Assembly (NCBI GenBank): GCA_963736855.1
Contig: CAVTQK010000021.1
Location: 512,001 to 576,000, forward strand
Origin: an uncultured delta proteobacterium
GTDB taxonomy: Bacteria > Desulfobacterota > Desulfobacteria > Desulfobacterales > UBA2156
Direction: 5' to 3'
DNA length: 64,000 nt
The position numbers were made by a program, and so were the translations under genes. Shown piece by piece: positions 26,378 through 62,719 of this stretch. The notes below the pieces were generated by a model that saw nothing but the letters and a program-made list of their open reading frames with translations, did no database searches and was not told the DNA's origin. Positions within the stretch are counted from its first letter, which is position 1. Each line of letters starts with the position of its first letter.

Positions 26378-26421
26378 GAAAAGCCACCTTTCTTTAACAG
26401 CATTTTATCGACGCATCATTT

Positions 26422-45518: not shown

Positions 45519-45520
45519 TA

Positions 45521-45747: not shown

Positions 45748-45779
45748 TCTACCGAGTAGTAACTTTTGGAGTAACAGAG

Positions 45780-46134: not shown

Positions 46135-48111
46135 ATGAACAAATCGTATAGAACACGCCGACAACTTTTGGATGAGTTGCAGGAACTCACATCGCGGATG
46201 ATGGAAGCTGAGGAAACTCTACGAGCTATCCAAAGCGGTGAGGTGGACGGCCTCATTGTCTCAACGACGGAAGGAGATCGCGTCTTTACGCTATCGGGTG
46301 CCGATCATCCTTACAGGGTCATGGTCGAAACAATGAACGAAGGAGCCGTCACCCTTGCCTCCGACGGCACGATCCTTTACAGTAACCAACGTTTTGCCGA
46401 TATCGTCAAAGTGTCTCTGGAAAAAGCAATAGGAACTTCAATCTACCAATATATTTCATCAACAGACCTTCAATTATTTGAGGAATTGGTTAAGCGGGGT
46501 TTAAATGGGAACCGTGAGGGGGAACTGGCCTTACAGGCTGGAGGTGAAAACTCTGTGCCTGTCTTACTTTCCGTAAGTCCCCTTCAACTCACGGACATGC
46601 CCGATGCGGTGTGTGCCATAATAGTGGACATGACCGAGCGCAAGAAGATGGAGGAGGCGCTAAAGAATTCTGAAACTCGCTACCGCCGTCTCTTTGAAGC
46701 AGCTCGAGATGGAATATTAATTCTCGATGCCGAGACAGGACAAATAGTGGATGTTAACCCATTCGTGTTAGAAATATTGGGTTATTCACATGAGGAGCTC
46801 TTAGGGAAGAAACTCTGGGAAATTGGCACCTTTAGAGATATTGAAGAATCGAAAGCCACCTCTGCGGAATTAAAGAGCAAAGGATATGTTCGCTACGATG
46901 ATTTACCGCTGGTGACGAAAGACGGGCGTAAAATTGCCGTGGAATTTGTCAGTAATGTCTATCTGGTCAACCATTACAAAGTGATTCAGTGTAACATCCG
47001 CGACACCACTGAACGGAAACTTACAGGAGAGGCTTTAAAAAAATCTCACAACGAACTGGAACGACAAGCTGTCGAACTTCGGACGGCTCTTTCTGAAATC
47101 AAAACATTGAAAGACCGACTCGAGGCCGAGAATATTTACTTCCGTCACGAACGCAAACTGAAATATCAATTTGAGAATATTATCGGGCAAAGTGATGGTC
47201 TTAAGTATGTTCTCTATCGAGCGGAACAAGTTGCTCCTATGGACACAACAGTCCTCATCCTTGGGGAAACCGGCACGGGAAAAGAGTTGATTGCTGCCGC
47301 CATTCATGGCATGAGTCCGCGTACGAAACGGCCCATGATTATGGTCAACTGTGCTGCCTTGCCTGGCAATTTAATAGAGAGCGAATTGTTCGGCCGGGAG
47401 AAGGGGGCATTTACCGGGGCCGATACCCGGCAGATAGGCCGATTCGAGGTCGCCAATGGTTCCACCCTTTGCTTAGACGAGATCGGGGAGCTGCCGCTGG
47501 AGTTGCAGGCAAAGCTGCTCCGGGTGATTCAGCATGGCGAGTTTGAACGTCTGGGCTCGTCCCATACCATCAAAGTCGATGTGCGAATCGTGGCAACGAC
47601 CAATCGAGACCTTGATGAAGAGGTCCGCAATGGCCGGTTTCGGCAGGACCTTTACTATCGGCTCAACGTCTTTCCCATCACTGTACCACCACTACGGCAG
47701 CGGAAAGAAGACATCCCGTTGTTGGTCAAGACCTTCATAGAGCGATACTCCAGGAAATTGGGGAAACAGATCACATCAATTCAGAAGGAGACGATGAAGG
47801 CTCTGCAGGATTATCCGTGGCCCGGAAACGTCCGGGAGCTGGAAAGCATCATTGAACGGGGCGTGATCTTGTGCCCGGGGCCGGTTTTGCACCTGGCAGA
47901 TAAACTGGAGATTTCATCCCTTCCACTCTCATCCGCCGTGAGAACCCTGGAAGAGATGGAGCGAAACCAGATCCTTAAGATCCTTTCGGAAACCCGATGG
48001 CGCATCGAGGGAAAGAACGGGGCCGCAGCGATTTTGGGCCTCCACCCGAGTACCTTGAGAGCGAGGATGCATAAGCTCGGGATACTTCGGCCGGAAACCA
48101 AGGGGTCGTAA
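46135..48111 (+). CDS. PAS-PAS sigma54-dependent enhancer-binding protein (AAA+, Fis-type HTH)
   Basis: N-terminal coil EAEETLRAIQSGEVD, two PAS domains, GETGTGKE, GAFTGA, LDEIGE, RQDLYYRL, WPGNVREL, C-terminal HTH; no receiver domain. Confidence 0.93.
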   Translation: MNKSYRTRRQLLDELQELTSRMMEAEETLRAIQSGEVDGLIVSTTEGDRVFTLSGADHPYRVMVETMNEGAVTLASDGTILYSNQRFADIVKVSLEKAIGTSIYQYISSTDLQLFEELVKRGLNGNREGELALQAGGENSVPVLLSVSPLQLTDMPDAVCAIIVDMTERKKMEEALKNSETRYRRLFEAARDGILILDAETGQIVDVNPFVLEILGYSHEELLGKKLWEIGTFRDIEESKATSAELKSKGYVRYDDLPLVTKDGRKIAVEFVSNVYLVNHYKVIQCNIRDTTERKLTGEALKKSHNELERQAVELRTALSEIKTLKDRLEAENIYFRHERKLKYQFENIIGQSDGLKYVLYRAEQVAPMDTTVLILGETGTGKELIAAAIHGMSPRTKRPMIMVNCAALPGNLIESELFGREKGAFTGADTRQIGRFEVANGSTLCLDEIGELPLELQAKLLRVIQHGEFERLGSSHTIKVDVRIVATTNRDLDEEVRNGRFRQDLYYRLNVFPITVPPLRQRKEDIPLLVKTFIERYSRKLGKQITSIQKETMKALQDYPWPGNVRELESIIERGVILCPGPVLHLADKLEISSLPLSSAVRTLEEMERNQILKILSETRWRIEGKNGAAAILGLHPSTLRARMHKLGILRPETKGS

Positions 48112-48139
48112 TAGAAAGTTAGATTCTCCGCCGCGGTTC

Positions 48140-48287
48140 CCTCCATATCTGGAGGTTCCACCAAATATTGAGGTCAATCAAATCATTTCACCTTTATCTA
48201 CGCTTCTCCCTTATTCATCTAACCCAGCGTTATGAAAAGATAATCCCAAACTCTTGATTTTTTCACAATGTTGGCAGGTCACTTGCA
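48140..48287 (+). promoter_or_regulatory. Sigma54 promoter module 1: tandem UAS palindromes, IHF site, -24/-12 box
   Basis: CCTCCATATCTGGAGG-tt-CCACCAAATATTGAGG (48140-48173); IHF consensus AATCAAGAGTTTG on minus strand (48247-48259); TGGCAGGTCACTTGCA (48272-48287). Confidence 0.8.
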
Positions 48288-48299
48288 ATTACGATCTGC

Positions 48300-48626
48300 A
48301 TGATTCTGGCCATCATACGAATGAAGGTTCTTGCTGAGAAGCGCAAGGAGCTTTCCCAGACGATCGCATTACTGATCGGCTCCCTAAGGACAGAGAAGGG
48401 ATGTCGGCGCTGCGACTTTTACCGGAGTTTGGAGGATAAAAACGAACTCTGTATTCTTGAAGAATGGGATACCCGGGAGAACCTAGATAGCCACCTGAGG
48501 TCGGAGCGTTTTAAGGTCCTTCGGGGGGCGATGAATCTTCTCCAAGAGCCCTACGAAATGATGTTCCACACCGTAGCATCGGGAAAAAAGAAAACGGAAG
48601 CGCGGTCCCAGCCAGCAGTTGAATGA
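48300..48626 (+). CDS. Antibiotic biosynthesis monooxygenase (ABM) family protein
   Basis: R.EKGC, LEEWDTRENLDSHLRSERF; duplicated at 60879. Confidence 0.8.
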   Translation: MILAIIRMKVLAEKRKELSQTIALLIGSLRTEKGCRRCDFYRSLEDKNELCILEEWDTRENLDSHLRSERFKVLRGAMNLLQEPYEMMFHTVASGKKKTEARSQPAVE

Positions 48627-48685
48627 CCGGGATGACTGGGGCCAACGTACCATCTCTCAAACCAAATTCCGAAAGGAGGAATACC

Positions 48686-48865
48686 ATGAAATCAAGCAGA
48701 AGGGATGAGACAGAAGGCAAGTTGCACCAAGTGAAAGGTAAGATCAAGGAGATCGCCGGGAGAGTAAGCATGAATCCCGGCTTGGAAGCCGAAGGCAAAG
48801 AGGAAAACAGAACGGGCAAAGTTCAAGAAAAGATCGGCCAGGTCAAGAAGCTCGTTGGGAAGTAA
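48686..48865 (+). CDS. CsbD-family stress protein
   Basis: D.TEGK..QVKGKIKE.AG.....LEAEG.....GKVQ..IG; strong RBS AAGGAGG. Confidence 0.88.
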   Translation: MKSSRRDETEGKLHQVKGKIKEIAGRVSMNPGLEAEGKEENRTGKVQEKIGQVKKLVGK

Positions 48866-48961
48866 TAGATGACGCATCCCTCGTGGGCGGCATCGTGTTG
48901 CTGGTCGCGGGAAAGAAGAAGAGCTGGTGAAAGGCAAAACGTTTCAATCACGGAGGTTCTT

Positions 48962-49252
48962 ATGAAAGACAAACGAAAAGCGTACGAAGAAAAGCTCGAT
49001 GCACAGTTGAAGGAATGGAACGCGCAGATCGCTCTGCTCAAGGCCAAGGCGGAGAACGCCAAGGCCGACGCGAAGATCGATCACTACAAAACCATCGACG
49101 CATTGGAGCACAAACAGGATGAGGCCAAGACGAAGCTGCAGGAGTTGAAGATCGCCGGCGATGAGGCATGGGAAGCCGTCAAAGGAGGCGCGGAAAAAGT
49201 CTGGGCTGAAGTCAAAACCGCCTATCACGATGCGGCCTCAAAATTCAAATAA
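48962..49252 (+). CDS. Small coiled-coil stress-type protein
   Basis: KRKAYEEKLDAQLKEWNAQI...AWEAVKGGAEKVW; RBS GGAGG. Confidence 0.75.
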   Translation: MKDKRKAYEEKLDAQLKEWNAQIALLKAKAENAKADAKIDHYKTIDALEHKQDEAKTKLQELKIAGDEAWEAVKGGAEKVWAEVKTAYHDAASKFK

Positions 49253-49559
49253 GGCAGAAACGCTGAACGTATCCGTCTGGCGGCAGGCTGCTTTCTGTTC
49301 AACTGAACGGACATGGGTTGGTAACATCAGTGTCCACAAAAGAAGGTGCGGCATGGAGCAGGGCGAGAAAGAGAAGAAGGATCCGACGCATACAAGCCTA
49401 GGACAAGGAAGAAGCGGGATTGCAACGGTGGTCTTCTGAAAAAATGGATGGTTTAACAAGATTGATGGACCCAACTTGGAAAGATTGAGACAAAGCGGAT
49501 ATTTGGACAAAAGGTCTTATTAGGCATTTAACCACTCACAAAAGAAAGAGAGGCAACTT

Positions 49560-50090
49560 ATGCGTTTTAACAAGATTTTCCTATTGCTACCCTTGAGTCT
49601 GATCGTTGGTCTTTTGGGTTGCACGAAAGAGCAAAAGTCGGAAGCTCCCAAACAGGAGCAGGTTACAAAAAAACTGGTTCCCCCGAAGCTCGAGGTTAAG
49701 GGCGAGAATTTTCTTTTGGAACTCAGCGAACTTCAAGTCGCTATGATGATGGACAATGTTTCAAAGGAAATCACCGAGACGCCGAGTCTTAAAGGCCGCA
49801 TCAAAATAACCAATCAATCCAATGATAATTTGGAAATCCAAGGGATCACCTTGGAATACCTGGATCAAGCGGGTAAGCCCATCCCCTTTGCTTCCGGAGA
49901 GAAAATATCGAAGGCGACCATATGGTTGCAGGCGATCAAGCCCGGAGAAACAAGCGAGGGTTCCATCGATGCCACCATTCCCAGGACGGCGGTCAAGGAA
50001 AAGGCCCTGGGAAAAATTGAAGTCAACCTGGTTTACATCCCAACGCTGCTTAAACGAGAGAGGTTGTCATTTGCTCAAAAGGTTGAATAG
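49560..50090 (+). CDS. Hypothetical lipoprotein
   Basis: Signal peptide with lipobox LLGC; RBS GAGG. Confidence 0.7.
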   Translation: MRFNKIFLLLPLSLIVGLLGCTKEQKSEAPKQEQVTKKLVPPKLEVKGENFLLELSELQVAMMMDNVSKEITETPSLKGRIKITNQSNDNLEIQGITLEYLDQAGKPIPFASGEKISKATIWLQAIKPGETSEGSIDATIPRTAVKEKALGKIEVNLVYIPTLLKRERLSFAQKVE

Positions 50091-50183
50091 CCGTACGGAC
50101 TCATGGAATAGGCATGCGCTCGATGACCCCTCTTGTACCGCCTGGGCGGGACGGGGTCAGCGAGCCAATCAAAAAGGGAAAAA

Positions 50184-51719
50184 ATGAAAGCGCTTCTGAT
50201 ATACCCTCCATACCCGGATACCTTCTGGAGTTTCAAATATGCCCTATCCTTCATATCCAAAAGGGCCGTTCATCCTCCGCTCGGCTTACTCACGGTTGCC
50301 GCGATGCTTCCTGAAGAATGGGAAAAAAGACTCGTGGACATGAATGTGGCCAACTTGAAAGACCGGGATCTTCAGTGGGCCGATTATGTCTTTATCAGTG
50401 CCATGGCGGTCCAAAAGAAATCGGCGAAGGAACTTATTTTCCGGTGTAAGGAATGGGGCCTGAAAGTCGTGGCGGGCGGCCCGCTCTTTACCGCCGCTCC
50501 CGAAGATTTTCCGGAAGTGGACCACCTGGTGCTCAATGAAGCCGAGACTACCCTCCCGGAATTTTTAGAAGATCTGGCCGGAGGTCAGGCCGAACATCTA
50601 TATACGTCCACATCATTTCCGGATCTGGAAAAGACCCCTATTCCCCTCTGGGGACTTTTGGAAATGAAGCGGTATGTCTCCATGAATATGCAATATTCCA
50701 GAGGTTGCCCCTTTCATTGCGAATTTTGTGATATTACGACCCTCTTCGGCCATCGAAGTCGGGCCAAAAAAGTCGGCCAGATACGGAAAGAATTGGAAAC
50801 CCTCTATTCCCTGGGCTGGCGGGGCGGGGTCTTTTTTGTGGATGATAATTTCATAGGCAACAAAAAGAAACTCAAAGAGAATATCCTGCCGGAAATGATC
50901 GACTGGATGAAGAAAACGAAATACCCCTTTAACTTCTCAACCGAAGCGTCCATAAATCTCGCCGACGATGAAGAACTGATGAAGCTGATGATCCAGGCTG
51001 GTTTTAAGTCCGTTTTTGTGGGCATTGAAACCCCGGACGACAGGGCGCTGAAGGAATGCCACAAATTCCAGAACACCAATCGTGATCTCATGGACAGCGT
51101 GGAAAGAATTCAGAAGTTCGGGTTGCGGATGCGGGGAGGCTTCATCGTAGGATTTGATAGCGATTCCCCTGCCATATTTGAAAAGCAGATCGAATTCATT
51201 CAAAAAAGCAAAATTGTCACAGCCATGGTAGGGATGCTGAATGCCCCCCGCGGCAGCCGGCTCTTTGAACGCCTCCAAAAAGAAGGACGACTCTTGAAGG
51301 AAGCCACCGGCGACAATACGGATTTCTCGACCAATATCATCCCCAAAATGGGCTATGAAAAGCTGACTGAGGGATACCGGTACATAGTCAACGGAATCTA
51401 TTCTCCCAGGCTGTATTACGAGCGGGTGAAGGGATTTCTAAGGCAATACAAGCCCCTGGAAAAGAGAAAATGGCACTTCCATTTCAGGTACCTCCGTTGG
51501 TATTTTCCCTATCTCGGCGCCCCTTTCAAAGCACTGATGATATTAGGCATAAAAGATAAGGCCCGGATCTATTACTGGAAACTTTTCTTCTGGTCTTTAT
51601 TCAGACGGCCATTGCTCCTGCCTTTGGCTATAACGTATTCGATTTATGGATTCCATTTCAGAAAAGTATTCAAATTAAACTTCGATACCAACCTGGTACA
51701 TCAGGAAAAAACGATCTGA
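50184..51719 (+). CDS. B12-binding radical SAM protein (DUF4070-type C-terminus)
   Basis: PPLGLLTVAA, SRGCPFHCEFC, FFVDDNFIGN, GFIVGFD. Confidence 0.88.
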   Translation: MKALLIYPPYPDTFWSFKYALSFISKRAVHPPLGLLTVAAMLPEEWEKRLVDMNVANLKDRDLQWADYVFISAMAVQKKSAKELIFRCKEWGLKVVAGGPLFTAAPEDFPEVDHLVLNEAETTLPEFLEDLAGGQAEHLYTSTSFPDLEKTPIPLWGLLEMKRYVSMNMQYSRGCPFHCEFCDITTLFGHRSRAKKVGQIRKELETLYSLGWRGGVFFVDDNFIGNKKKLKENILPEMIDWMKKTKYPFNFSTEASINLADDEELMKLMIQAGFKSVFVGIETPDDRALKECHKFQNTNRDLMDSVERIQKFGLRMRGGFIVGFDSDSPAIFEKQIEFIQKSKIVTAMVGMLNAPRGSRLFERLQKEGRLLKEATGDNTDFSTNIIPKMGYEKLTEGYRYIVNGIYSPRLYYERVKGFLRQYKPLEKRKWHFHFRYLRWYFPYLGAPFKALMILGIKDKARIYYWKLFFWSLFRRPLLLPLAITYSIYGFHFRKVFKLNFDTNLVHQEKTI

Positions 51720-51738
51720 TCGCTGAACAGGAGACAGT

Positions 51739-52017
51739 ATGTCGACGACCTTTAAATCCAATAGTATAGAACAATTAATGGCTGAGGCCGATGAACTGAT
51801 CGAAAAAATTACTTCTGATTATTTAGAGGACCTGAAAGAGGAGCATCGTCTCCAGTTTGAAAAGCATACTCAGGCATTACAGGAAATCAAGTCTGCGTTT
51901 CAAGCCCGGACCGGGAAGAGAGAACCTTTGGAAGAAGGTTCCTTCGCCGAGGGAATGCACCAGGCAGTCATGGATATCGTGAAGGCCATGAAGGACATGG
52001 TCGGATATTTTGCCTGA
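51739..52017 (+). CDS. Hypothetical helical protein
   Basis: 92-aa ORF with RBS AGGAG. Confidence 0.6.
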   Translation: MSTTFKSNSIEQLMAEADELIEKITSDYLEDLKEEHRLQFEKHTQALQEIKSAFQARTGKREPLEEGSFAEGMHQAVMDIVKAMKDMVGYFA

Positions 52018-52319
52018 TCTCCTGCAAGCTCGAACCACAATTGGGATATAATAACGATCCCGGCCAATTGTCCATCGCGCCGCTGCACCAGGAGAACGGG
52101 GGAATAGTTATCGCTGGAATCTCTACCTCATGTGACAACCGTTCAGTCTTATGGTTTTCGCGGACCTGACACTACCGGAGTGATAAATCCAAATCGTAAA
52201 CAAGAACCCCGAAGTATCGGGTTACGCGAATTTTAAGCCGCCAGTAAGAGCAGGGTCCTGTTGTGCTAACCGTTCCGGAGAGGATCTCGCCTTGTCTGAA
52301 TGCATGAAATTGCGCAGAC

Positions 52320-52647
52320 CTGTTATGCCCTGCCGGAGATAAGGGCGACAGGCCTTGAAGGCTACTTCGATCCCGTGATCATCTCCGCGCCTCGCGGGTA
52401 TAGGAAGCCCGACCCGCGGCTCTGGGGAGAGGCGCTTCAGATTATGAAACTGAATCCCTCTCAGGCCATCTATGTCGGCAATGACATGTACCGAGACATC
52501 TTTGGCGCACAACGGGTTGGCATTAGGACCATCTTGGTGGACTCAAACCAAGGAGCCAGGTCCTACGAGAACATCACACCAGACTTCTTTGCTGCCCGGT
52601 TTGAGCAGGTAATAGATGGGATCGTGTCGGTCGATCCTTTCCATTAA
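52320..52647 (+). pseudogene. C-terminal fragment of a HAD-family hydrolase
   Basis: YFDPVIIS..GYRKPDPR, YVGNDMYRDIFGA; N-terminal DxD motif absent. Confidence 0.7.
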
Positions 52648-53057
52648 AAAATTCTGGGGTCACACGCCCTGGAGGCTGAAGATAAACATCGGGAAGGAAG
52701 CGACCGAATGACATCACCACCTGTCCGTCGGCTGATATTGCGATTGAGTGCATCGGTGATCTGTTCAACAACGACTTATCTCTGCAGTCAATCTAGACAA
52801 TACATAGCCGAATACCCATTGAGTAAGGTCACGATGCACCTTAAACAACCCGATTTATTATCTTGAATATGGGGGAGTATCTCACCTCTCCGCTCACCGG
52901 GATGTTTTGGATTCCCCGGCCCCCCTCGTTTCGTAGAATGAAGTTGTGCAGAGGCAGGAGCTCAGAGAGATGTTGTCCAAATCTCCATCCAAACTCTTGA
53001 CTCTTCGGCGGGAAACCAAGGGGTCGTAATAGAAAGTTAGATTCTCCGCCGCGGTTC

Positions 53058-53205
53058 CCTCCACATCTGGAGGTTCCACCAAATATTGAGGCCAAACCAA
53101 TCGAATCATCCTTCTCCACTTTCCACTCATGTTACTCTAATCCATTGTTATTAAAGAGTGATTCCAGCTTTATGGTTTTCACGGTCTTCTGGCAAGCCAT
53201 TTGCA
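53058..53205 (+). promoter_or_regulatory. Sigma54 promoter module 2
   Basis: CCTCCACATCTGGAGG-tt-CCACCAAATATTGAGG (53058-53091); TGGCAAGCCATTTGCA (53190-53205). Confidence 0.78.
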
Positions 53206-53297
53206 GTGATTACTTGCATGATCCTTGATACCAAGGGCCCAGAAGGTAAATTTATCTGGAAAGACGAATTGAATCGTCAGAAAGGAGGCCAGTTGCC

Positions 53298-53432
53298 ATG
53301 CAAATCAGTCTATCGCCACAGCCGATAGTTTCCTTAATCGCGGGAATCTTGATTCTCCTTGTCCCGAGGCTGCTGAATTACATCGTTGCCATCTATCTTA
53401 TTATATTTGGCATCCTCGGATTGATTCGCTGA
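53298..53432 (+). CDS. DUF3096-like small membrane protein (absent from ORF track)
   Basis: MQISLSPQPIVSLIAGILILLVPRLLNYIVAIYLIIFGILGLIR; RBS AAGGAGG. Confidence 0.85.
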   Translation: MQISLSPQPIVSLIAGILILLVPRLLNYIVAIYLIIFGILGLIR

Positions 53433-53503
53433 ATGGCGCGAGAATGTAGAAAAGGTCTTATAATCAACCAATTCACTACAAACCCAAAAAAGGAGTAACC
53501 GCA

Positions 53504-53818
53504 ATGAAAAAGAGAAATGTCTTTATCCACTGTTTAATGGTTCTTATGCTGATCGGCACCCTTGCAGCCTGTGCATCGACATCCACCCGGGAAAGTACAG
53601 GGGAATACGTCGACGATTCGGTCATCACGACCAAGGTAAAATCTCTGCTTGCCGGAGATGATTTTCTCAAGTCATTCCAGATTGGTGTCGAAACTTACAA
53701 GGGCGTCGTTCAATTGAGCGGTTTTGTGAACACTAAAGAAGCCTCCAATAAAGCGGCTCAAATCGCCGGCGGCGTCAAAGGAGTCAAATCCGTGAAAAAT
53801 GATCTGGTCGTGAAATAG
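53504..53818 (+). CDS. BON-domain (OsmY-like) lipoprotein
   Basis: Lipobox LAAC; DDSVITTKVK, GVVQLSGFV, GVKSVKNDL. Confidence 0.9.
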   Translation: MKKRNVFIHCLMVLMLIGTLAACASTSTRESTGEYVDDSVITTKVKSLLAGDDFLKSFQIGVETYKGVVQLSGFVNTKEASNKAAQIAGGVKGVKSVKNDLVVK

Positions 53819-53995
53819 CGACCGGCATCCCTTACCGGATGGAATATGGCAACCGCTCTGACGTATGGAAATTCCCCCTCAACCCTCCCCTCTCCCCCAT
53901 TTCCCGAGGAGAAGGAAGAGTTGATGGGGTCCAGAACAGGAATTTATTCAGTGAATTTACGACTTGGGACATCGGCAGGAAAATGGAGGAGAAAA

Positions 53996-54562
53996 ATGAA
54001 GAACGCTATTTTATCGACAGTACTAATGGTTTTTGTATTGGCCTTGTTTTCGGGTTGTGCCACGATGCCTCAAACATGGCCGGATTATGAAAGGAACGCA
54101 GAGAACAAGATGGTTGTAATCCAGGAGAAGATTGGAGATGGGCTGAAAACCGGCGCTCTTTCTCCTGATCAGTCACAGATGTTTCTGGCGACACTGAAAA
54201 GTATTCGAACAGATTATGCGGCGCTGAGAGACAAAAGCGTTTACCGTGACGAATGGGACAGGCTTCATGGAAGACTTGATGCACTTGGAGAGGAAATCAA
54301 CAGGGCGCTTTCCCGGCCTGCAAGAATTGAAGAAACAAGGAATGGGGACAGGATTGTCGCACTCCAAAGGAAAATTGATGATGGAAAAATCAGCAGGCGT
54401 TTGCCTTCGACGGAGGGTCGAGAATTTCAATCCAGACTGGACTCCGTTCGGCGTGATTATCTGCGGATGACGGAAGGAGGCAGGTCCATCACGTACGAGG
54501 AGAGTGCAGACATTTCCCGCAGGCTCGATTCATTGGAAACGGAATTAAACCGGTTCCGGTAG
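53996..54562 (+). CDS. Hypothetical helical lipoprotein with an internal repeat
   Basis: Lipobox FSGC; QEKIGDG...GRLDAL repeated as QRKIDDG...RRLDSL; RBS GGAGG. Confidence 0.7.
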   Translation: MKNAILSTVLMVFVLALFSGCATMPQTWPDYERNAENKMVVIQEKIGDGLKTGALSPDQSQMFLATLKSIRTDYAALRDKSVYRDEWDRLHGRLDALGEEINRALSRPARIEETRNGDRIVALQRKIDDGKISRRLPSTEGREFQSRLDSVRRDYLRMTEGGRSITYEESADISRRLDSLETELNRFR

Positions 54563-54743
54563 AATTTATCAGAGAATCGGCGGATAGGGCTGAAGGTATG
54601 TGCAGGTGGTTTACAGGCAGTAATGAGATCACAGGTTGATGAAATGGGGCCGATCTTGTTTCGATACCGCAATGGTCTTTTGCGAACGGAGACGGATCGG
54701 CCCCATCATGCTTATCAAAAGGAAACATGGGATGATAGAGACC

Positions 54744-55157
54744 ATGAAAGAGACGATAAAACCTCTATCCTCAAACGCAGGGCAAAGACTATCCGGACGT
54801 ATCCTTGTGGCTGAGGATAATAAGGCTATTAAGAAAATAGTTTCCGGGTTCCTTGGTTTCATGGGATTTGAAGTGGCTCTTGTCGAAAACGGCCTTGAAG
54901 CGCTCTCTCTGTTTCTCAAGACCTCATTCGATTTGGTTCTGACCGACCTCGACATGCCCGTCATGGACGGTTGGAGCTTGACACGCCGCATTAAAGAAAG
55001 GTCGCCTGACACTCCGGTGGTATTGATGACGGGTGAGGATAGGAAGACCGTTTTGAGGAAGGCGGAAAGATGGCCTGTTGACTCAGTCCTATTCAAGCCG
55101 TTTGAACTGGAAGATCTTAAAAGGACAGTCCAAGAAGCGCTGGAGTTGCGGAAATGA
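54744..55157 (+). CDS. Single-domain response regulator
   Basis: ILVAEDN, LTDLDMPVMDG, LMTG, FKPF. Confidence 0.85.
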   Translation: MKETIKPLSSNAGQRLSGRILVAEDNKAIKKIVSGFLGFMGFEVALVENGLEALSLFLKTSFDLVLTDLDMPVMDGWSLTRRIKERSPDTPVVLMTGEDRKTVLRKAERWPVDSVLFKPFELEDLKRTVQEALELRK

Positions 55158-55802
55158 AAATTATGTGTTTTTCGTGCCGCCAAGAAATCGATTCGGATCA
55201 TCAGGCGTTCAGTAATTTCAGGGGTTCCCTCAGATGCCTGAATTACAGAGTCGTGATGGAAATACAGACAATGAGAGGAGTTCTAATCTGGTGCTATCCA
55301 TTATCAGACATGAATCCCGATCTTGCTGGCGGACTCTCCGAACATGATCTCTAAGCGGTGCAAAAAAGGGATATCCACTCTATGGCGAAACATGGTCGAG
55401 ACATGAATGAAAAGAGACAGAGCGCCGGGTCCAAAGCTGATTTTATCCGATTGTCCGGTATTGGGTCGGAGCTTGCAGAGTTCGTGAATCATTTTGTCGA
55501 AAAGCCCGAAATTTTATATTCAATGCCTTTCGAAAGGCGGCGCGAAATTGAAAATAGGATGGACGCATTTCTGTCTTTGTTTGAGCAATGACAAGCCATA
55601 CACCGCAACAGCTTCATCGCGGCCGTGGTGATTCAAATTCGCTCCATTCAAGATCGATGCCTGTAACATACCTGGAATGTTTCTATGCAGCGGGGCATTG
55701 GGCAAAGCGGTTCGTCTGCTCACGTTCCCGGTTTTGATAGTCGTTCCCTGGCACAATTTCCGTGACAGGTATCCAAGAATTTCTTTACTAGGAGAAGACG
55801 AA

Positions 55803-56024
55803 ATGAACGCAGTCAAGATTGCGGCAATCGTGCTGATCATGGTTGGCATCCTGGGGTTGGCGTACGGTAGTTTCAGCTACACCAAGGAGACTCACGAGGC
55901 CAAGATAGGGCCGATCGAGCTGTCGGTAAAGGACAAACAGACTGTAAACGTCCCTGTTTGGGCCGGCGTAGGGGCGATAGTTATCGGCGGCGTGCTCCTG
56001 CTTTTCGGAAGCAAGAAGAGATAG
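55803..56024 (+). CDS. Small two-TM membrane protein (DUF3185-like)
   Basis: GILGLAYGSFSYTKETHEAKIGPIEL...VPVWAGVGAIVIGGVLL; RBS AGGAG. Confidence 0.75.
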   Translation: MNAVKIAAIVLIMVGILGLAYGSFSYTKETHEAKIGPIELSVKDKQTVNVPVWAGVGAIVIGGVLLLFGSKKR

Positions 56025-56111
56025 CCGCTGCACCTGTGGCGGCTTATTCGGCTCAATAGCGACACCTGCGGTGGGAGCTGTGACGCTGCTATTCGAAATG
56101 CCGCTGCCAAG

Positions 56112-56375
56112 TGTCAATGGGAATTAAAAGTGTGCTCGTTCTGGGAAAATATAAGTGTACCACCTGCTGCCTCAATTTTGCGTTTCTCCGATAGGGGCCA
56201 GAGGATCCGGCCGGTTCACGGTGTTTGTCTGGAGCATGTGTTTCCTCAGACGGTAGCTGTGACCTTTCATGTTGATGACCCGGCAGTGATGGAGTGGCCG
56301 GTCCAGGATGGCGGTGGCGATGACCGGGTCGCCGAACAGCTCCTGTCAGTCTCCGAAGCTTTTATTGGAGGTGAT
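56112..56375 (-). mobile_element. IS21-family right end with an IstB 3' remnant
   Basis: Minus strand [43 protein letters not shown]; terminus TGTCAATGGGAATT...AAGTGTACCACC. Confidence 0.85.
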
Positions 56376-56617
56376 AGGGAATTGTTATCATTTTTAATGC
56401 GGCCACCGAAAGGTTGACGGGTCATTCTGCTGAGAATACGATCGGTAAGATATCCATTCAGGAGATTTATGATATCCCTGAAATGGCCCGGAAAATCAAG
56501 GAGCAGATTTTCAGCGAAGACTTTGGGGGCTCCGGACGCCTGGACGGGGTTGAAGTGACCGTGAAAGGCCCTGAAGGGGAAAAGATCCCGATTCGCTTGT
56601 CCAAGGAGTCAGATTAA
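56376..56617 (+). pseudogene. PAS-domain fragment truncated by IS21
   Basis: GIVIIFNAATERLTGHSAE..IGK...GEKIPIRLS. Confidence 0.55.
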
Positions 56618-56643
56618 GATCCGGCTCTCCTTCAAAAGGTACC

Positions 56644-56792
56644 CCTCAATATATTGTGGCTCCACCAAATATTGAGGCCAGACAAATCATCTTTCCCCTT
56701 CTTTATGCCTTTATTTATTCATATAACGCCTTGTTATTAAAGTTAAGTATCCAAATCTTGGATTTTTCCCGGTTGTTGGCATGCTACTTGCG
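56644..56792 (+). promoter_or_regulatory. Sigma54 promoter module 3 (most diverged)
   Basis: CCTCAATATATTGTGG-ct-CCACCAAATATTGAGG (56644-56677); near-IHF site ~56752-56764; TGGCATGCTACTTGCG (56777-56792). Confidence 0.78.
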
Positions 56793-56931
56793 GTTACTCT
56801 CTATGTGATCCTGATCACACCGTACCTGCGTTAAAAAGGAGAACGGAAGCGCGGTCCCAGCCGGCAGTTTGACTACGATGGTTGGGGCTGACGATCCATT
56901 AGTCAAACTAAATTACGAAAGGGAGACCGTC

Positions 56932-57111
56932 ATGAAATCAGGAACAAGGGACGAAGCGGAAGGCAAGTTTCACCAAATGAAGGGAAAGGTCAAGGAGATC
57001 GCCGGGAAACTGAGCGATGATTCAAACTTGGAAGCTGAAGGTACCAATGAAAAGAGAGCCGGGAAAGTTCAAGAAAAGACCGGCCAGATCAAAAAGGTAC
57101 TGGGGAAGTAG
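56932..57111 (+). CDS. CsbD-family stress protein
   Basis: MKSGTRDEAEGKFHQMKGKVKEIAGK...; paralog of 48686. Confidence 0.88.
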   Translation: MKSGTRDEAEGKFHQMKGKVKEIAGKLSDDSNLEAEGTNEKRAGKVQEKTGQIKKVLGK

Positions 57112-57261
57112 TGAGAGCGGTGTATCATACATGTACCGGCGTGTCTTTTGGCCCTTGGCTGCGGTTGCATGATACACCATTGCTAGTAATCCGAAAGGCA
57201 TGAGGCCTTCGGAGCAGAAGAGTTCGAAAAGCAACCCTAACAATGCAAGGAAAATAATAAA

Positions 57262-58044
57262 ATGAAAGCAATATATAATGTATCTTTAATAGCAGCAGCG
57301 ATCACTCTCTTTGTGATCAGCGTGCCTGTGCAGGCGTCAAAAATGGATGAGCAAATCGTATCGTCAGCCCAAAAGTCGTATGTGTTCAAGACCTACCTCA
57401 AGGACGATGATATTAAAATCCAGTCCAAGGATAGCGTTGTCACCTTGACCGGGACTGTTTCTGAAGAAGGCCACAAACAATTGGCCCGGGAGACTGTTGC
57501 AAGCCTGCCCGGAGTTAAAAGCGTGGACAACAAGTTGGAATTAAAAGGTGAAGTCCCTGCTGAGCACTCGGATGCGTGGCTCATGACGAAGGTGAAAACC
57601 AGCCTCCTGTTCCATCGCAGCGTGAGCGCCATCGCAACCGAGATCGATGTCAAAGACGGCGTCGTGACTCTGCGTGGTGATACTGCCAATCAGGCACAAA
57701 AAGACCTGACAACCGAGTACGCCAAGGATGTTGATGGGGTCAAAGAGGTCAAGAATGAGATGACAGTTGCAAAGACCCCTAAAAAACCGGAAGAAAAAAC
57801 GATGGGCAAAAAGATGAGTGACATTGTTGAAAAGATTGATGACGCATCCATCACCGCCCTGGTCAAGAGTACGTTGCTGTATCATCGCTCGACCAGCGGC
57901 CTCAACACCAAGGTCGAGACGAACAATGGAGTGGTCACATTGAGTGGCAAGGCCAAAAACAAGGCTGAAAAAGATCTGGCCACCAAATTTGTAAGTGATG
58001 TTCACGGCGTAAAGAAGGTGGTCAATAAAATGACCGCCCAGTGA
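57262..58044 (+). CDS. Secreted protein with three BON domains (OsmY-like)
   Basis: Signal peptide; three repeats of VVTL.G....GVK.V.N. Confidence 0.9.
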   Translation: MKAIYNVSLIAAAITLFVISVPVQASKMDEQIVSSAQKSYVFKTYLKDDDIKIQSKDSVVTLTGTVSEEGHKQLARETVASLPGVKSVDNKLELKGEVPAEHSDAWLMTKVKTSLLFHRSVSAIATEIDVKDGVVTLRGDTANQAQKDLTTEYAKDVDGVKEVKNEMTVAKTPKKPEEKTMGKKMSDIVEKIDDASITALVKSTLLYHRSTSGLNTKVETNNGVVTLSGKAKNKAEKDLATKFVSDVHGVKKVVNKMTAQ

Positions 58045-58056
58045 TCCGAGTTCAGT

Positions 58057-58099
58057 ACCCACCGGAACAGCCGGCTCGTTGCCGACTGTTCCGGTGGGT
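58057..58099 (+). terminator. Strong hairpin after the BON gene (no clear U-tract)
   Basis: ACCCACCGGAACAGCCGGC-tcgtt-GCCGACTGTTCCGGTGGGT. Confidence 0.5.
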
Positions 58100-58267
58100 C
58101 ATCTATCCTATGAGCAGCTTCGTGGATTCCGCAAAGGTCTCCGTCAGGGCTGTATAGCGAAATCAGTCAAGGGTATCAAAGCTGTCAAAAACAGCCTTGT
58201 CGTGAAATGAACCGGCTGAAGCCAATTGATTTTGGATTTCAAATCATTTTTCAAAGGAGGACAAATC

Positions 58268-58425
58268 ATGCCAATCGGCACAATCTTACTCATAATTCTG
58301 ATACTGGCACTTGTGGGAATAATCCCAGTCTGGCCGCATAGCCGATCGTGGGGGTATGCACCCTTCGGTGTTGTGGGGCTGGTGGGATTATCCTTGTGAT
58401 TCTGCTCTTAATTGGCAGAATATAA
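58268..58425 (+). CDS. DUF3309-like small membrane protein with a 1-nt frameshift
   Basis: MPIGTILLIILILALVGIIPVWPHSRSWGYAP.G...(shift)IILVILLLIGRI; RBS AAGGAGG. Confidence 0.7.
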
Positions 58426-58519
58426 CCAACTCTTGAAAATCTATCACAAGCCGTTCGTAAAATGCCACTTTTTGTAACGAACCATTTAATGAAAGGGTTA
58501 AAACCACAGTAAGCGAAAT

Positions 58520-58790
58520 AGATAAAGCTATAGAGCATTTTAACTCTCTGCTCGACAAGTGGAATGATGAATTTGAAAAAATGGAGGACATGATCAGTAA
58601 GGCTGGCGGCAGATCCGAATGTCTACTACGACGAGCAATCAGCAGCACTACGGCCAACGAACCGTCATAAGACAAAGGATAAACCTGAGGAGATTAAAAA
58701 ATAGAGTGAGAACGCATGGAAAGATCTCAAGCAGGGTCTGGCAAACACATGGGCTGCCTTTGAGCAGGGCTTTAAATAAGTCGAATATTG
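58520..58790 (+). pseudogene. Decayed paralog of the 48962 coiled-coil protein
   Basis: Broken frames give LLDKWNDEFEKME and ENAWKDLKQGLANTW, with stops and shifts. Confidence 0.5.
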
Positions 58791-58797
58791 ATGTAAG

Positions 58798-58849
58798 TAA
58801 AACCTAAACTGAGCGATTTTTTATGAAAAATCGCTCAGTTTAGGTTTTA
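58798..58849. repeat. Perfect 24-bp inverted repeat
   Basis: TAAAACCTAAACTGAGCGATTTTT-tatg-AAAAATCGCTCAGTTTAGGTTTTA. Confidence 0.9.
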
Positions 58850-58859
58850 GGAAAGTGAC

Positions 58860-60338
58860 ATGATGACGAATACAGACGACAGACGACAACGCTCAATCCT
58901 GCAGAGAATTGCCCATCGGGCGATGCTGGAAAGAGGACTTTTTCCGGATTTTCCCATCCAGGCGCTTGCAGAGCTCGACAAAATAATTGGGCCGGCGACG
59001 CAAACTGGGGAATCGATGCGCGATCTCAGGAACCTTCTCTGGTGCTCCATAGACAACGATGATTCGCTTGATCTGGACCAGCTTACCGTTGCCGAAGGCC
59101 TGCCCGACGGGGCCGCAAAGGTCCGGGTCGCTATTGCCGACGTTGACGCTGTCGTCAAAAAACGATCGGCCCTTGACAATCACGCGCGGCAAAACACCAC
59201 CTCGGTCTACACGATCGCCCAGACGTTTCCGATGCTGCCCGAGAAACTCTCCACGGATCTTACCTCTCTCAACTATAAATCAGACCGCCTGGCCATCGTC
59301 ATTGAAATGGTTCTTGCCGGAGATGGATCGGTACAGAGTTCGGACATTTATCGAGCGACGGTGCGTAATCAGGCCAAGCTGGCCTACAACAGCGTTGCCG
59401 CTTGGCTCGAGGGTAATGGTTCGATGCCGGAAGGGATCGGCATAGTCAAAGGTCTCGACGAAAACCTTCGACTTCAGGACCGCGTGGCACAGAAACTGAA
59501 AGCGCTCCGGCACCTGCACGGTGCGCTGGATCTCGAAACAATCGAAGCCCGTCCGATTTTTGACGGAGATCAGCTCAAGGATTTGGAAGCCGACAAAGGG
59601 AACCGGGCTAAGGAAATTATTGAGGACTTCATGATCGCTGTCAACGGCGTTACCGCGCGATACCTCGCGTCTAAAAAGGTTACATCGCTGCGGCGCGTGG
59701 TTCGCACACCCAACCGCTGGGACCGCATCATCGAGATTGCCGCAGAGCGGGGCTCAACGTTGCCCAGGGAGCCCGACGCAAAGGCACTGGAGCAATTCCT
59801 GGTATCGGCGAAAGCTGCCGATCCTCTGCGCTTTGCCGATCTCTCTCTCAGCGTCATCAAACTCCTGGGTTCGGGTGAATACGTCATCCAACTTTCGGGA
59901 GGCAGTGTCGCCGGGCACTTCGGTCTTGCGGTCAAGGACTATGCACACTCCACCGCCCCGAACCGTCGATACCCCGATCTGATTACCCAGCGGTTGTTGA
60001 AAGCGGCAATGGCGGGACGTGCCCAGCCGTACGAGAACGATGAATTGACAGCGCTCGCCAAGCACTGCACGAAAGCGGAAGATGCAGCGAAAAAAGTGGA
60101 GCGGCAAATCACAAAATCCGCCGCTGCCATGCTATTGGAATCAAGGATCGGGGAGCAGTTCGATGCCATCGTCACCGGCGCATCGTACAAAGGCACGTGG
60201 GTCCGTCTTCTGCATCCGCCCATTGAAGGAAGACTGGAGAGCGGTTTTGAAGGCATGGATGTCGGCCAGAGGCTCCGTGTGCAACTGGTCCGCACAAATG
60301 TGGAGCGCGGATATATCGACTTTACGAGAGTGGTGTAA
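58860..60338 (+). CDS. RNB-domain (RNase II/R family) exoribonuclease, short form
   Basis: SIDNDDSLDLDQ, VAIADV, IIEDFMI, HFGL...YAHSTAPNRRYPDL. Confidence 0.88.
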   Translation: MMTNTDDRRQRSILQRIAHRAMLERGLFPDFPIQALAELDKIIGPATQTGESMRDLRNLLWCSIDNDDSLDLDQLTVAEGLPDGAAKVRVAIADVDAVVKKRSALDNHARQNTTSVYTIAQTFPMLPEKLSTDLTSLNYKSDRLAIVIEMVLAGDGSVQSSDIYRATVRNQAKLAYNSVAAWLEGNGSMPEGIGIVKGLDENLRLQDRVAQKLKALRHLHGALDLETIEARPIFDGDQLKDLEADKGNRAKEIIEDFMIAVNGVTARYLASKKVTSLRRVVRTPNRWDRIIEIAAERGSTLPREPDAKALEQFLVSAKAADPLRFADLSLSVIKLLGSGEYVIQLSGGSVAGHFGLAVKDYAHSTAPNRRYPDLITQRLLKAAMAGRAQPYENDELTALAKHCTKAEDAAKKVERQITKSAAAMLLESRIGEQFDAIVTGASYKGTWVRLLHPPIEGRLESGFEGMDVGQRLRVQLVRTNVERGYIDFTRVV

Positions 60339-60356
60339 GGAGGAACGGATTGCAGA

Positions 60357-60691
60357 ATGACGAGAGAGTCACCCCTGAAACCAGCTAACCCACGCATCCT
60401 CACGATCAATGGCGGCTCGTCGAGCATCAAGTTCGCGCGCCTCACTCTTAGGAGGCAGAGTAGCGGGGAGGAGTTGGCTTTCGGAGAAATCTCAACAGGA
60501 GCCCAAAACGACTTGCTGCTGGCTACAGACATTGTCAAATCCATGGTCACGGAATATGGCATGAACGATCGTCCGGGGCTTGTGACCTATGCACACGCTC
60601 GTCAGCCTCTGTTCCCGCCGGGAAGATTTGCTCCCAGCAAAATCTCCATCCAAACCATTGACTCTTCGGCCGGAAACCAAGGGGTCGTAAT
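60357..60691 (+). pseudogene. Chimeric remnant: acetate kinase N-terminus, FtsH protease-domain fragment and activator tail
   Basis: [14 protein letters not shown] (acetokinase motif), then [30 protein letters not shown] (FtsH M41). Confidence 0.7.
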
Positions 60692-60718
60692 AGAAAGTTA
60701 GATTCTCCGCCGCGGTTC

Positions 60719-60866
60719 CCTCCATATCTGGAGGTTCCACCAAATATTGAGGTCAATCAAATCATTTCACCCTTATCTACGCTTCTCCCTTATTCATCTA
60801 ACCCAGCGTTATGAAAAGATAATCCCAAACTCTTGATTTTTTCACAATGTTGGCAGGTCACTTGCA
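60719..60866 (+). promoter_or_regulatory. Sigma54 promoter module 4
   Basis: Tandem palindromes 60719-60752; IHF site; TGGCAGGTCACTTGCA 60851-60866. Confidence 0.8.
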
Positions 60867-60878
60867 ATTACGATTTGC

Positions 60879-61205
60879 ATGATTCTGACCATCATACGAA
60901 TGAAGGTTCTTGCTGAGAAGCGCAAGGAGCTTTCCCAGACGATCGCATTACTGATCGGCTCCCTAAGGACAGAGAAGGGATGTCGGCGCTGCGACTTTTA
61001 CCGGAGTTTGGAGGATAAAAATGAACTCTGTATTCTTGAAGAATGGGATACCCGGGAGAACCTAGATAGCCACCTGAAGTCGGAGCGTTTTAGGGTCCTT
61101 CGGGGGGCGATGAATCTTCTCCAAGAGCCCTACGAAATGATGTTCCACACCGTAGCATCGGGAAAAAAGAAAACGGAAGCGCGGTCCCAGCCAGCAGTTG
61201 AATAA
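60879..61205 (+). CDS. ABM-family protein, duplicate
   Basis: 3 aa differences from 48300-48626. Confidence 0.8.
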   Translation: MILTIIRMKVLAEKRKELSQTIALLIGSLRTEKGCRRCDFYRSLEDKNELCILEEWDTRENLDSHLKSERFRVLRGAMNLLQEPYEMMFHTVASGKKKTEARSQPAVE

Positions 61206-61264
61206 CCGGGATGACTGGGGCCAACGTACCATCTCTCAAACCAAATTCCGAAAGGAGGAATACC

Positions 61265-61444
61265 ATGAAATCAAGCAGAAGGGATGAGACAGAAGGCAAG
61301 TTGCACCAAGTGAAAGGTAAGATCAAGGAGATCGCCGGAAAAGTAAGCATGAATCCCGGCTTGGAAGCCGAAGGCAAAGAGGAAAACAGAACGGGCAAAG
61401 TTCAAGAAAAAATCGGCCAGTTCAAGAAACTCGTGGGGAAGTAA
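61265..61444 (+). CDS. CsbD-family stress protein, duplicate
   Basis: 2 aa differences from 48686-48865. Confidence 0.88.
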   Translation: MKSSRRDETEGKLHQVKGKIKEIAGKVSMNPGLEAEGKEENRTGKVQEKIGQFKKLVGK

Positions 61445-61527
61445 AACGGAGTATCTTACGACGACACCCCTTGATCCCGCAGCCGCGGTTGGGTGTATAA
61501 TTGAGGATAAAGGAAAGGAGAAATGTC

Positions 61528-61680
61528 ATGGGAATAATCCTGATTGTCATTCTGGTTATCCTGCTTGTCGGCACTCTGCCCACCTGGCGCCACAGCTCTA
61601 GCTGGGGACCTTATCCCAGCGGCGGAATCGGATTGATTCTTCTGATCATAATCATCCTGTTACTGCTGGGACGGATCTGA
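61528..61680 (+). CDS. DUF3309-like small membrane protein (absent from ORF track)
   Basis: MGIILIVILVILLVGTLPTWRHSSSWGPYPSGGIGLILLIIIILLLLGRI; RBS AAGGAG. Confidence 0.85.
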   Translation: MGIILIVILVILLVGTLPTWRHSSSWGPYPSGGIGLILLIIIILLLLGRI

Positions 61681-61966
61681 GATGGCGGTGAGGCATATGA
61701 ATTAATCCTCTGAATGCGGAATGGATAAGTTAGATTCTAATGGATTTCTGATAAAGTCGATGAGAAGAACCGGCTATGGATGCAATTCTATCTTCGTTTG
61801 AACGATGATAAGTCATACACCATAACACTTTCAATCATGCTGATCCAAGAGCTTTTTTAATAGGATGAGACGAAATGAAAGGAGTCAAGATTGAAGCAAT
61901 CGTTCGATCGGGCGCTTAAATGACTGCGGGGTCGGGTACACTTTTGCCCCAGGAAGGTAAATCAAC

Positions 61967-62455
61967 ATGAAAAGGGTCGCAATAATAGTCGGTGCAGGAA
62001 TTTTTCTGGTAATCGTGCTCTTCGGTTGGTGGGTCACCAGCCGTCCCGAACGCGGGACGACCGGCTCGGTCAGCACGAATTTTCGATGGCTCGGCCCCAA
62101 CGATAAGATCGTGGTCGACGGCTTCGACGACCCTAAGGTCCAGGGTGTCGCCTGTCACCTTTCCCGGGCACAAACCGGAGGCGTAAAAGGCGCTATGGGC
62201 GTGGCGGAGGATACCAGTGACGCCAGCATCGCCTGCCGTCAGGTAGGCCCAATCAAGATTCTTGGTGAAATCAAGGACGGCGAGCGCGTCTTTGACGAGC
62301 ACCGTAGCCTGGTTTTCAAGACACTACAAGTCGTGCGCTTCTTCGACCGCAAGCGCAATGTTTTAGTCTACGTTTCCTACAGCGATCGGATTATCGCGGG
62401 CAGCCCGCAGAACAGTATCAGCACAGTGCCGATCATGGGTTGGCCGGCACCATAA
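61967..62455 (+). CDS. creA: CreA-family protein
   Basis: [45 protein letters not shown]. Confidence 0.88.
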
Positions 62456-62458
62456 GTT

Positions 62459-62690
62459 GATGAAGGCTGGATTGTACTCACAGATGGCGTCGGGCCTATG
62501 CGTCAGTATTGCATCGGGGCCATACTGCTTGATCTTGAATAGCCTACAAAAATAATCGCTCGCCTGGAAAATCCGCTGCTTGCCCCGCACGAAAAAGAGC
62601 GCGAGGGATATGTTCCCAATATTGTTTATTCCTGCGGTGCGATAATTCATAACAACGAGTTAGTCATTCCCTACGCCATGAAAAACTTAA
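62459..62690 (+). pseudogene. Fragment of a GH130/PH1107-like glycosidase
   Basis: EGWIVLT.GVGPMRQYCIGAILLDLE*PTKIIARL...EREGYVPNIVYSCG...LVIPYA. Confidence 0.7.
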
Positions 62691-62719
62691 GAAGCTACCT
62701 TTCATAAAGGAGCGGGTAA

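Follow-up and report, generated by a model that had tools for sequence, protein, structure and literature searches.

The kai operon, its activator and four tandem-dyad promoters

The window analyzed here is a 64,000-nucleotide stretch from an uncultured member of the Desulfobacterales (GenBank assembly GCA_963736855.1, contig CAVTQK010000021.1, positions 512,001 to 576,000 of the forward strand), and coordinates below are positions 1-64,000 of it unless another contig is named. It carries a kaiC gene, two kaiB genes and a sigma54 activator gene in a row, followed by four copies of an element made of two tandem dyads, a spacer and a -24/-12 box. The source genome (G000, 3.9 Mb scanned) is 100% complete by markers and contains rpoN and four HU/IHF-family genes (HU and IHF not distinguished). 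The genes and elements are as follows.

43436..45184, plus strand: kaiC, double-domain, Rhodobacter/KaiC2 type; best PDB match 8DBA (E 1e-186, residues 15-554)
45186..45518, plus strand: first kaiB copy, 1 bp behind kaiC; best match 8FWJ chain M
45780..46124, plus strand: second kaiB copy, 10 bp before the activator gene; closest to 8FWJ chain M
46135..48111, plus strand: sigma54 activator, 658 aa; N-terminal domain (residues ~1-60), two PAS domains, AAA+ domain, Fis-type helix-turn-helix (HTH)
48140-48155 and 48158-48173, plus strand: tandem dyads of copy 1, predicted enhancer (pattern, column profile and matrix scan)
48220..48232, minus strand: IHF-like site A position of copy 1, three mismatches
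48247..48259, minus strand: IHF site B of copy 1, perfect consensus (the site of the earlier note)
48272..48286, plus strand: -24/-12 box of copy 1, predicted +1 near 48298
53058..53204, plus strand: copy 2 promoter (dyads 53058-53091, box 53190-53204)
53138-53150, minus strand: IHF-like site A of copy 2
56644..56791, plus strand: copy 3 promoter (dyads 56644-56677, IHF-like sites 56724-56736 and 56748-56760, box 56777-56791)
60719-60752 (dyads), 60826-60838 (IHF site B) and 60851-60865 (box), plus strand: copy 4 promoter, inside a 781-bp duplicate

KaiC has Ser-Ser at the phosphorylation positions (S424/S425) and a C-terminal extension that can be aligned to the coiled-coil tail, and the Walker and EE motifs of the double-domain protein agree with a KaiC2 type. 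No match to KaiA (PF07688) was found in G000, while a control genome was positive, and neither SasA nor RpaA was found in the kai operon, to which that search extended. The activator has an intact GAFTGA motif (residue 424), intact Walker A and B motifs, an R-finger and the recognition helix LHPSTLRARM at residue 636. Between the two kaiB genes (45520-45780) lies a fragment of a "23S rRNA intervening sequence protein" gene (four-helix, PF05635, below cut-off) flanked by short inverted repeats. An ISL3 transposase fragment at 42688-43056, ~380 bp before kaiC, may have altered kai expression.

All four elements described in the earlier note were recovered at their positions, with first dyads starting at 48140, 53058, 56644 and 60719 and TGGCA-N6-TTGC boxes at 48272, 53190, 56777 and 60851. 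The second dyad, reported there as constant, is indeed exact in every copy: CCACCAAATATTGAGG occurs at 48158, 53076, 56662 and 60737 and nowhere else in the window. The general layout is two 16-bp dyads with 2 nt between them (18-bp period), 95 to 100 bp of spacer and the box. In copies 1 to 4 the gap between second dyad and box measures 98, 98, 99 and 98 bases, which bears out the constancy noted earlier and places each value one below the count of 99/99/100/99 given then. The first dyad of copy 1 begins 28 bp past the stop codon of the activator gene, and the predicted +1 positions lie near 48298, 53216, 56803 and 60877. The boxes read GG-N10-GC; GG and TTGC were required by the search, and the remaining box columns are conserved as well. 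Layout and conservation together support the earlier reading of the elements as sigma54 promoters with upstream dyads, and to judge from the sequence they almost certainly are. RNA contigs of relatives (two studies) give a weak hint, as they have an edge at ~48312-48320 and leave the box uncovered; unlike these contigs, run X7 (kind of run not on record) covers the box.

The genome-wide scan that had been suggested as a check gave six elements, a result not due to chance. The matrix used, trained on 82 promoters from other genomes, found these six dyad pairs with box in the 3.9-Mb genome and no other pair, and a looser single-site scan added one weak site, with none in the reversed genome. A candidate at C21:477774, where one dyad stands at 136 bp from a box, was rejected. 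Two of the six copies lie outside the window: copy 5 (G000:C21:576813, ~800 bp past its end) is a twin of copy 2, and copy 6 (C19:68587, minus strand), whose first dyad has decayed, is a twin of copy 3. The genome total is three promoter types in two copies each, and five copies fall within 17 kb behind the activator.

Conservation of the element and its probable binding protein

A GTDB scan with the activator yielded 78 loci from the best 80 of 136 stretches, comprising 53 with a cognate HTH (at least 70% identity), 17 with a distant activator and 8 that end before the HTH. The element was present in 50 of the 53 cognate loci, in line with the earlier expectation that the motif would lie beside orthologous activators, and in none of the 17 distant ones; as the matrix was trained on these GTDB loci, their element count is partly circular. 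The 50 loci hold 83 promoters, of which 46 directly follow the activator and 37 lie at a greater distance, and 21 of the loci have two to six copies before intact-looking genes. The dyad-to-box spacing is 95 to 100 bp in 82 of the 83 promoters and 88 bp, one helical turn less, in the other. Peaks of the column profile fall on the two dyads, on the box and on a TAA-N5-TGTTAT motif ~52 bp before the box. In one promoter (L015:13232), beside an activator with MASE3 input, the outer pair C...G is changed to T...A in both dyads together. Neither of two exact element patterns had a match in viral contigs.

The third profile peak reads as a minus-strand IHF site. The IHF consensus reported previously (WATCAR-N4-TTR, minus strand; site B) is indeed perfect in copies 1 (48247-48259) and 4 (60826-60838), with one mismatch in copy 3 and three in copy 2. 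The profile peak marks another, better-conserved IHF-like site ~27 bp upstream of it (site A). With at most one mismatch allowed, site A is present in 39 of the 83 promoters (2.8 in shuffles) and site B in 23 (2.5 in shuffles), while 32 have neither. Copies 1 and 4 combine a poor site A (three mismatches in copy 1) with a perfect site B, the reverse of copy 2; site A has one mismatch in copies 2 and 3. At orp1 the poorer-matching IHF site was the working one (Fievet 2014, PMC3897727), so consensus scores do not decide which of the two is used.

A second set, fetched with the activator's first 80 residues alone and scanned with the fixed matrix, comprised the best 80 of 370 metagenome loci (some of them near-duplicates or overlapping with the GTDB set): 42 with cognate activators, 10 with complete proteins carrying other outputs and 28 assigned to neither. 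In this set, which is outside the training data, the dyad pair lies behind 38 of the 42 cognate activators. It was found behind none of the 10 complete proteins with the Kai N-terminus and another output, three of which have less than 300 bp downstream; by C-terminal sequence, seven of the ten are kinase-like or unclassified, two are activators of another clade and one is LuxR-like. The four exceptions are L151, where the element has a 3-nt gap, and L165, L167 and L168, which run into a gene that we take, from familiar motifs, to be cheB-like. Spacings of 89, 90 and 91 bp also occur in the metagenome set. Nothing clear in the way of tandem dyads was seen behind other FhlA-like activators (L084-L092, L101, L129).

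Motif and recognition helix were found to change together. Locus L062 has the kai operon and the N-terminus with a different helix, NPKTLESRM, and lacks the main motif; instead, tandem CCTGATATATCAGG with a 19-bp period stands 98 bp before a box, twice. A search of 301 genomes of the phylum with the L062 C-terminus returned a single match, G207, found by protein only, and this genome has the same helix, the same dyad type at 98 bp from the box, and lmo0937-like and sll1863-like genes. The predicted covariation of helix and motif is confirmed in this one further genome. In G000 itself there are 19 sigma54 activator matches, and only the adjacent activator has this HTH type. Co-occurrence, helix-motif covariation and the lack of a second such HTH among the 19 make the adjacent activator a very likely binder of the dyads, as the earlier note had proposed.

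Several observations weigh against this assignment or temper the counts behind it. The covariation is based on two genomes (L062 and G207). Six loci have a cognate HTH and no element nearby (L037, L048, L034 with only 121 bp downstream, L165, L167 and L168), and in L085, at 56% identity, the helix residues are unchanged but the dyad pair is missing. Of 151 relatives, seven contain the pattern, three of them with a close activator; of the other four, G046 has an activator fragment before the pattern, G005 has short relics only, G096 is 75% complete, and the match in G069 looks spurious, with an unrelated spacer. Moreover, all promoters are homologous, as spacer columns other than the IHF-like peak retain 0.3 to 1.3 bits; the loci are also related to one another, some being near-duplicates or present in both sets, so that the counts overstate independence.

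Origin of the copies and predicted target genes

The genes behind each copy, together with the traces of duplication, are listed below.

48300..52017, plus strand: copy 1 targets; ABM-domain gene, csbD, sll1863-family stress protein, putative lipoprotein, B12/radical-SAM DUF4070 protein, 92-aa protein
53003..53057, plus strand: 55-bp relic of the activator gene's 3' end and trailer before copy 2, preceded by a decayed ftsH-like 3' end
53298..56024, plus strand: copy 2 targets; DUF3096, BON/OsmY-like lipoprotein, 189-aa putative lipoprotein, single receiver domain, small membrane protein
56869..60338, plus strand: copy 3 targets; csbD, triple-BON protein, small open reading frames (ORFs), RNB-domain (RNase II/R-like) protein
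60664..61444, plus strand: 781-bp duplicate of 48085-48865 (self-comparison); activator 3' relic, copy 4 promoter, ABM 60879-61205, csbD 61211-61444
61501..64000, plus strand: further copy 4 targets; DUF3309, creA, and ftsH ending past the window just before copy 5

The four sites are not independent: all descend by duplication from the promoter that follows the activator gene. Copies 1 and 4 form the 781-bp duplicate, at 98.3% identity. Copy 2 has the 55 bp of activator gene end in common with both and is a recombinant, its upstream 55 bp and dyads being of copy-1 type and its spacer of copy-5 type. In copy 3 the ABM gene is reduced to its first and last bases, followed by csbD, and decayed ftsH-like pieces precede copies 2, 4 and 5. 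Similar traces are found elsewhere. In the GTDB loci, 10 of the 37 distal promoters match the activator's last 60 bases above all 555 shuffles (9 of 36 if one is set aside that apparently follows an intact second activator with the same C-terminus as an ORF in L177), and the ABM start or its relic lies 3' of the box in 55 of the 83 promoters. Repeated duplication and recombination of the proximal promoter appears to be the simplest reading of the copies. The regulon would have grown as the promoter behind the activator, often with the gene's last codons, was copied in front of new cargo.

Selection on the motifs had been argued from the divergence of the spacers in copies 2 and 3. The motifs are identical at 42 of 43 positions between copies 1 and 2, compared with 56 of 98 in the spacer (Fisher p 1e-7), and at 38 of 43 between copies 1 and 3, compared with 64 of 100 (Fisher p 0.002). 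Since copy 2 arose by recombination, some of the identity between its motifs and those of copy 1 reflects common history, which weakens that part of the argument. The pairs of copies 1 and 5 and of copies 1 and 3, in which both flanks have diverged, retain dyad identities of 97% and 85%, and from these pairs selection on the dyads is still evident.

Three explanations would remove the adjacent activator or the extra copies from the picture. The dyads might be an RNA hairpin or terminator of the kai-activator operon that was passively duplicated, as they lie 28 bp past a stop codon, dyad 1 folds as a 6-bp hairpin (~-10 kcal/mol) and G-U pairs occur at one dyad position in 16 of the 83 promoters. 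However, in 70 of 83 promoters the better-conserved dyad 2 retains its A-A and C-U mismatches; in the long pairing, one-sided changes far outnumber compensated ones (89 to 8), a U-tract is lacking (1.5 T in 10 nt) and no Rfam match was obtained; the dyads also stand at a fixed distance from the sigma54 box and are kept where both flanks diverged. With neither a covarying stem nor a U-tract, a structured RNA or intrinsic terminator is extremely unlikely. Likewise, a regulator encoded elsewhere might bind the dyads, with the neighboring activator using other sites. The other sigma54 activator matches in the genome and the few genomes with the element in which no cognate activator was detected would allow this, and in the text of Kazakov 2015 (PMC4641369) only one of two neighboring activators bound in one case, and motif similarity did not always parallel that of the DNA-binding domains. 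As there is only one such HTH in this genome, as the motif shifts with the helix and as it is absent behind other outputs, we regard a distant binder as very unlikely. It is also quite improbable that the extra copies are decaying by-products of rearrangement and that the activator-proximal promoter alone works. The copies do have remnants of ftsH, ABM and the activator's end at their flanks, copy 6 has lost dyad 1 and insertion sequence fragments lie nearby, but the motifs are kept far better than the spacers, and multiple copies before intact-looking genes recur in 21 of the 50 loci.

The regulon proposed earlier is not genome-wide; its copies are duplicates inside a stress-gene cluster, with predicted target genes behind them. 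Among the 50 loci with the element, the recurring targets are ABM (33), BON (20), lmo0937 (17), CsbD (15) and DUF3309 (12). The OsmY matches fall below the NCBIfam cut-off, and a gene for an lmo0937-family protein lies downstream, past the window end. CsbD and OsmY-like proteins are markers of general stress regulons. The ABM gene of copy 1 starts 2 nt after the predicted +1, and in 32 of 37 cases a distance of 27 to 29 nt separates the box's T from the ABM start, which puts the start ~2 nt past the expected +1; the ABM message is therefore likely leaderless.

Other repeats were also noted. A 52-bp, nearly perfect AT-rich palindrome (58798-58849) lies just before the RNB-domain gene. On contig C19 of G000, a 2.6-kb copy of the copy-3 region (L002, 14400-17035, 87%) sits near the contig end and adjoins transposase-like ORFs; it may be a second island or, alike, a strain mixture. 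A ~165-bp dispersed repeat of two subtypes (14910-15076, 24242-24406 and 26416-26577), with at least 60 matches in the genome, looks like a miniature mobile element.

Candidate Kai control and relation to known systems

The earlier note had read the motif as that of a Kai-output regulon. The Kai-type N-terminus, placed behind kaiB, is found in 32 of the 53 cognate loci and missing from 21, and the element is present in 30 and 20 of these, respectively; four of the loci counted as Kai-less are truncated or broken. This independence of the motif from Kai counts against a Kai regulon, as does its absence from any kai promoter, the ISL3 fragment lying ~380 bp upstream of kaiC. Kai-less inputs include CheB-CheR-PAS genes or their remnant (L010, L024), MASE3, alpha/beta-hydrolase and PAS-only types; L016 and L038 likewise follow CheB-CheR-PAS genes or a remnant, and end before the HTH. 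In a quick tree of 50 output domains the input types are interleaved, with weak support. In L165, L167 and L168 the cheB-like gene lies directly 3' of a Kai-type activator, which places both input types in one operon. Taken with the 0 of 10 among other outputs, the motif marks the output cassette and its HTH clade, not Kai, and what stands of the earlier claim is Kai control as an inference.

The case for Kai control comes from the operon structure and from the N-terminal domain, which in 76 of the 80 loci of the metagenome set follows kaiB irrespective of the output domain, and which is replaced where Kai is absent. The domain has no Pfam model, and 5,012 clusters (50% identity) match it. Among the best 150 cluster representatives it is nearly always N-terminally placed, and these proteins are 72 histidine kinases, 3 sigma54 activators and 73 unclassified proteins by rough BLAST sorting; among the best 120 matches it heads histidine kinases in 10. 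A place at the head of kinases too is what would be expected of a portable receiver. None of the 150 representatives has KaiB fused to it, and an apparent KaiB-activator fusion in L009 was rejected as an assembly gap. The domain (46135-46374) would be worth defining as a family. In KidA, PAS domains can bind fold-switched KaiB (PMC9478674), and Pseudomonas KaiC, which has a role in stress, physically contacts its neighboring kinase (10.1101/2022.01.26.477890). We consider Kai control of the activator probable on these grounds. The Rhodobacter homologue of KaiC follows the ATP/ADP ratio (PMC10076222), and a KaiC state of that kind would point to an energy-stress or stationary-phase output rather than a free-running rhythm; a daily rhythm as the output is improbable.

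The reading that we favor, and hold on balance to be likely, is that of a duplicated promoter whose dyads are bound by the activator encoded at 46135-48111, which would be signaled by KaiC-KaiB-KaiB and switch stress-type genes. Two activator dimers would occupy the dyads at their 18-bp period and nucleate the AAA+ ring; IHF would bend the spacer, and the GAFTGA loop would open the sigma54 polymerase at the box ~98 bp away. In a weaker step, the state of the KaiA-less KaiC may reach the activator, at its N-terminal domain or first PAS domain, by way of KaiB. A bolder form of this proposal, to which we give slightly less than even weight, is that KaiA-less KaiC-KaiB-KaiB switches a sigma54 activator directly, without a phosphorelay, through a portable N-terminal "Kai receiver" domain that heads kinases elsewhere, and that the output cassette is connected anew to CheB-CheR and further sensors, spreading as its own promoter is copied.

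Promoter and activator could also work as described with Kai not in control, the PAS domains sensing a small molecule or redox state and the kai genes being inherited along with a stress island as its cargo. The AAA-HTH part is kept in activators whose input is PAS-only, MASE3, alpha/beta-hydrolase or CheB-CheR-linked, and most of these keep motif and targets; in G003, of the same genus, the same first target genes stand behind a Kai-less activator, and input labels change many times on the weakly supported output tree. Against this stand the near-constant position of the N-terminal domain behind kaiB (76/80) and its replacement when Kai is absent, the gaps of only 1 bp between kaiC and kaiB and 10 bp between kaiB and activator, and the contact that Pseudomonas KaiC makes with its neighboring kinase (10.1101/2022.01.26.477890). 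We regard kai genes as mere cargo as unlikely, and retain Kai control as the preferred reading.

In Desulfovibrio vulgaris, sigma54 regulons likewise have the activator gene beside the promoter and are small, with one to four operons (PMC4641369). Their palindromes lie ~100 to 130 bp upstream with IHF sites between, a layout that the present one resembles with its candidate IHF sites, and the orp promoters use OrpR/DVU2106 and IHF (PMC3897727). The motif differs from the present one as far as the text of Kazakov 2015 shows, and KaiC and CsbD have no occurrence in that text (PMC4641369). Unlike those regulons, this locus is a cluster of duplicated promoters. The best NCBIfam match of the activator is FhlA/HyfR-type, and databases call its relatives "formate hydrogenlyase transcriptional activator." The input domain of FhlA is a GAF domain. 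An identity as FhlA was rejected, as the match reaches 395 bits, far below the cut-off of 830, the input is PAS and not GAF, and no formate or hydrogenase genes are among the recurring targets.

The closest solved KaiC and KaiB are those of the Rhodobacter sphaeroides KaiBC hourglass timer (PMC10076222; 8DBA, 8FWJ), with which this system has the Ser-Ser sites and C-terminal tail in common, KaiA not being found here. The ATP/ADP-driven phosphorylation cycle and the dodecamer are known for that homologue only, and no output is named in the passages of PMC10076222 covered. The present system differs in its two kaiB genes and linked transcription activator, and its hosts are mostly Desulfobacterota-type metagenome-assembled genomes, not phototrophs. 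KaiC of Pseudomonas (10.1101/2022.01.26.477890) and of Legionella (cited there) is likewise encoded beside a signaling partner and tied to stress resistance and culture age. Their partner is a histidine kinase or receiver, with no DNA site in the text covered, whereas the partner here is a one-component sigma54 activator with a readable motif. Cyanobacterial SasA-RpaA and KidA also link KaiC to transcription through a KaiB-type module (PMC5520375, PMC9478674). In contrast to cyanobacterial KaiABC, KaiA was not found here, the operon has no kinase and KaiB is not fused (0/150). Schmelling 2017 (PMC5520375) concludes that the output of non-cyanobacterial Kai systems must differ from SasA-RpaA and raises the question of the transcription factor that reads them.

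While the promoter mechanics are ordinary, the motif, the regulon and the candidate Kai output are apparently not in print: no report of a Kai-linked sigma54 activator or of this motif was found in the literature searched, which consisted mostly of titles and abstract starts. Should Kai control fail, a well-supported but ordinary activator motif would remain. For a KaiA-less clock system, a candidate reader, a 34-bp site, a promoter and predicted targets are now all defined, which would provide a testable gene readout. The relics that are still readable show growth of a regulon by promoter duplication, and the predicted targets point to a sigma54-run, general-stress-like program in Desulfobacterota-type bacteria.

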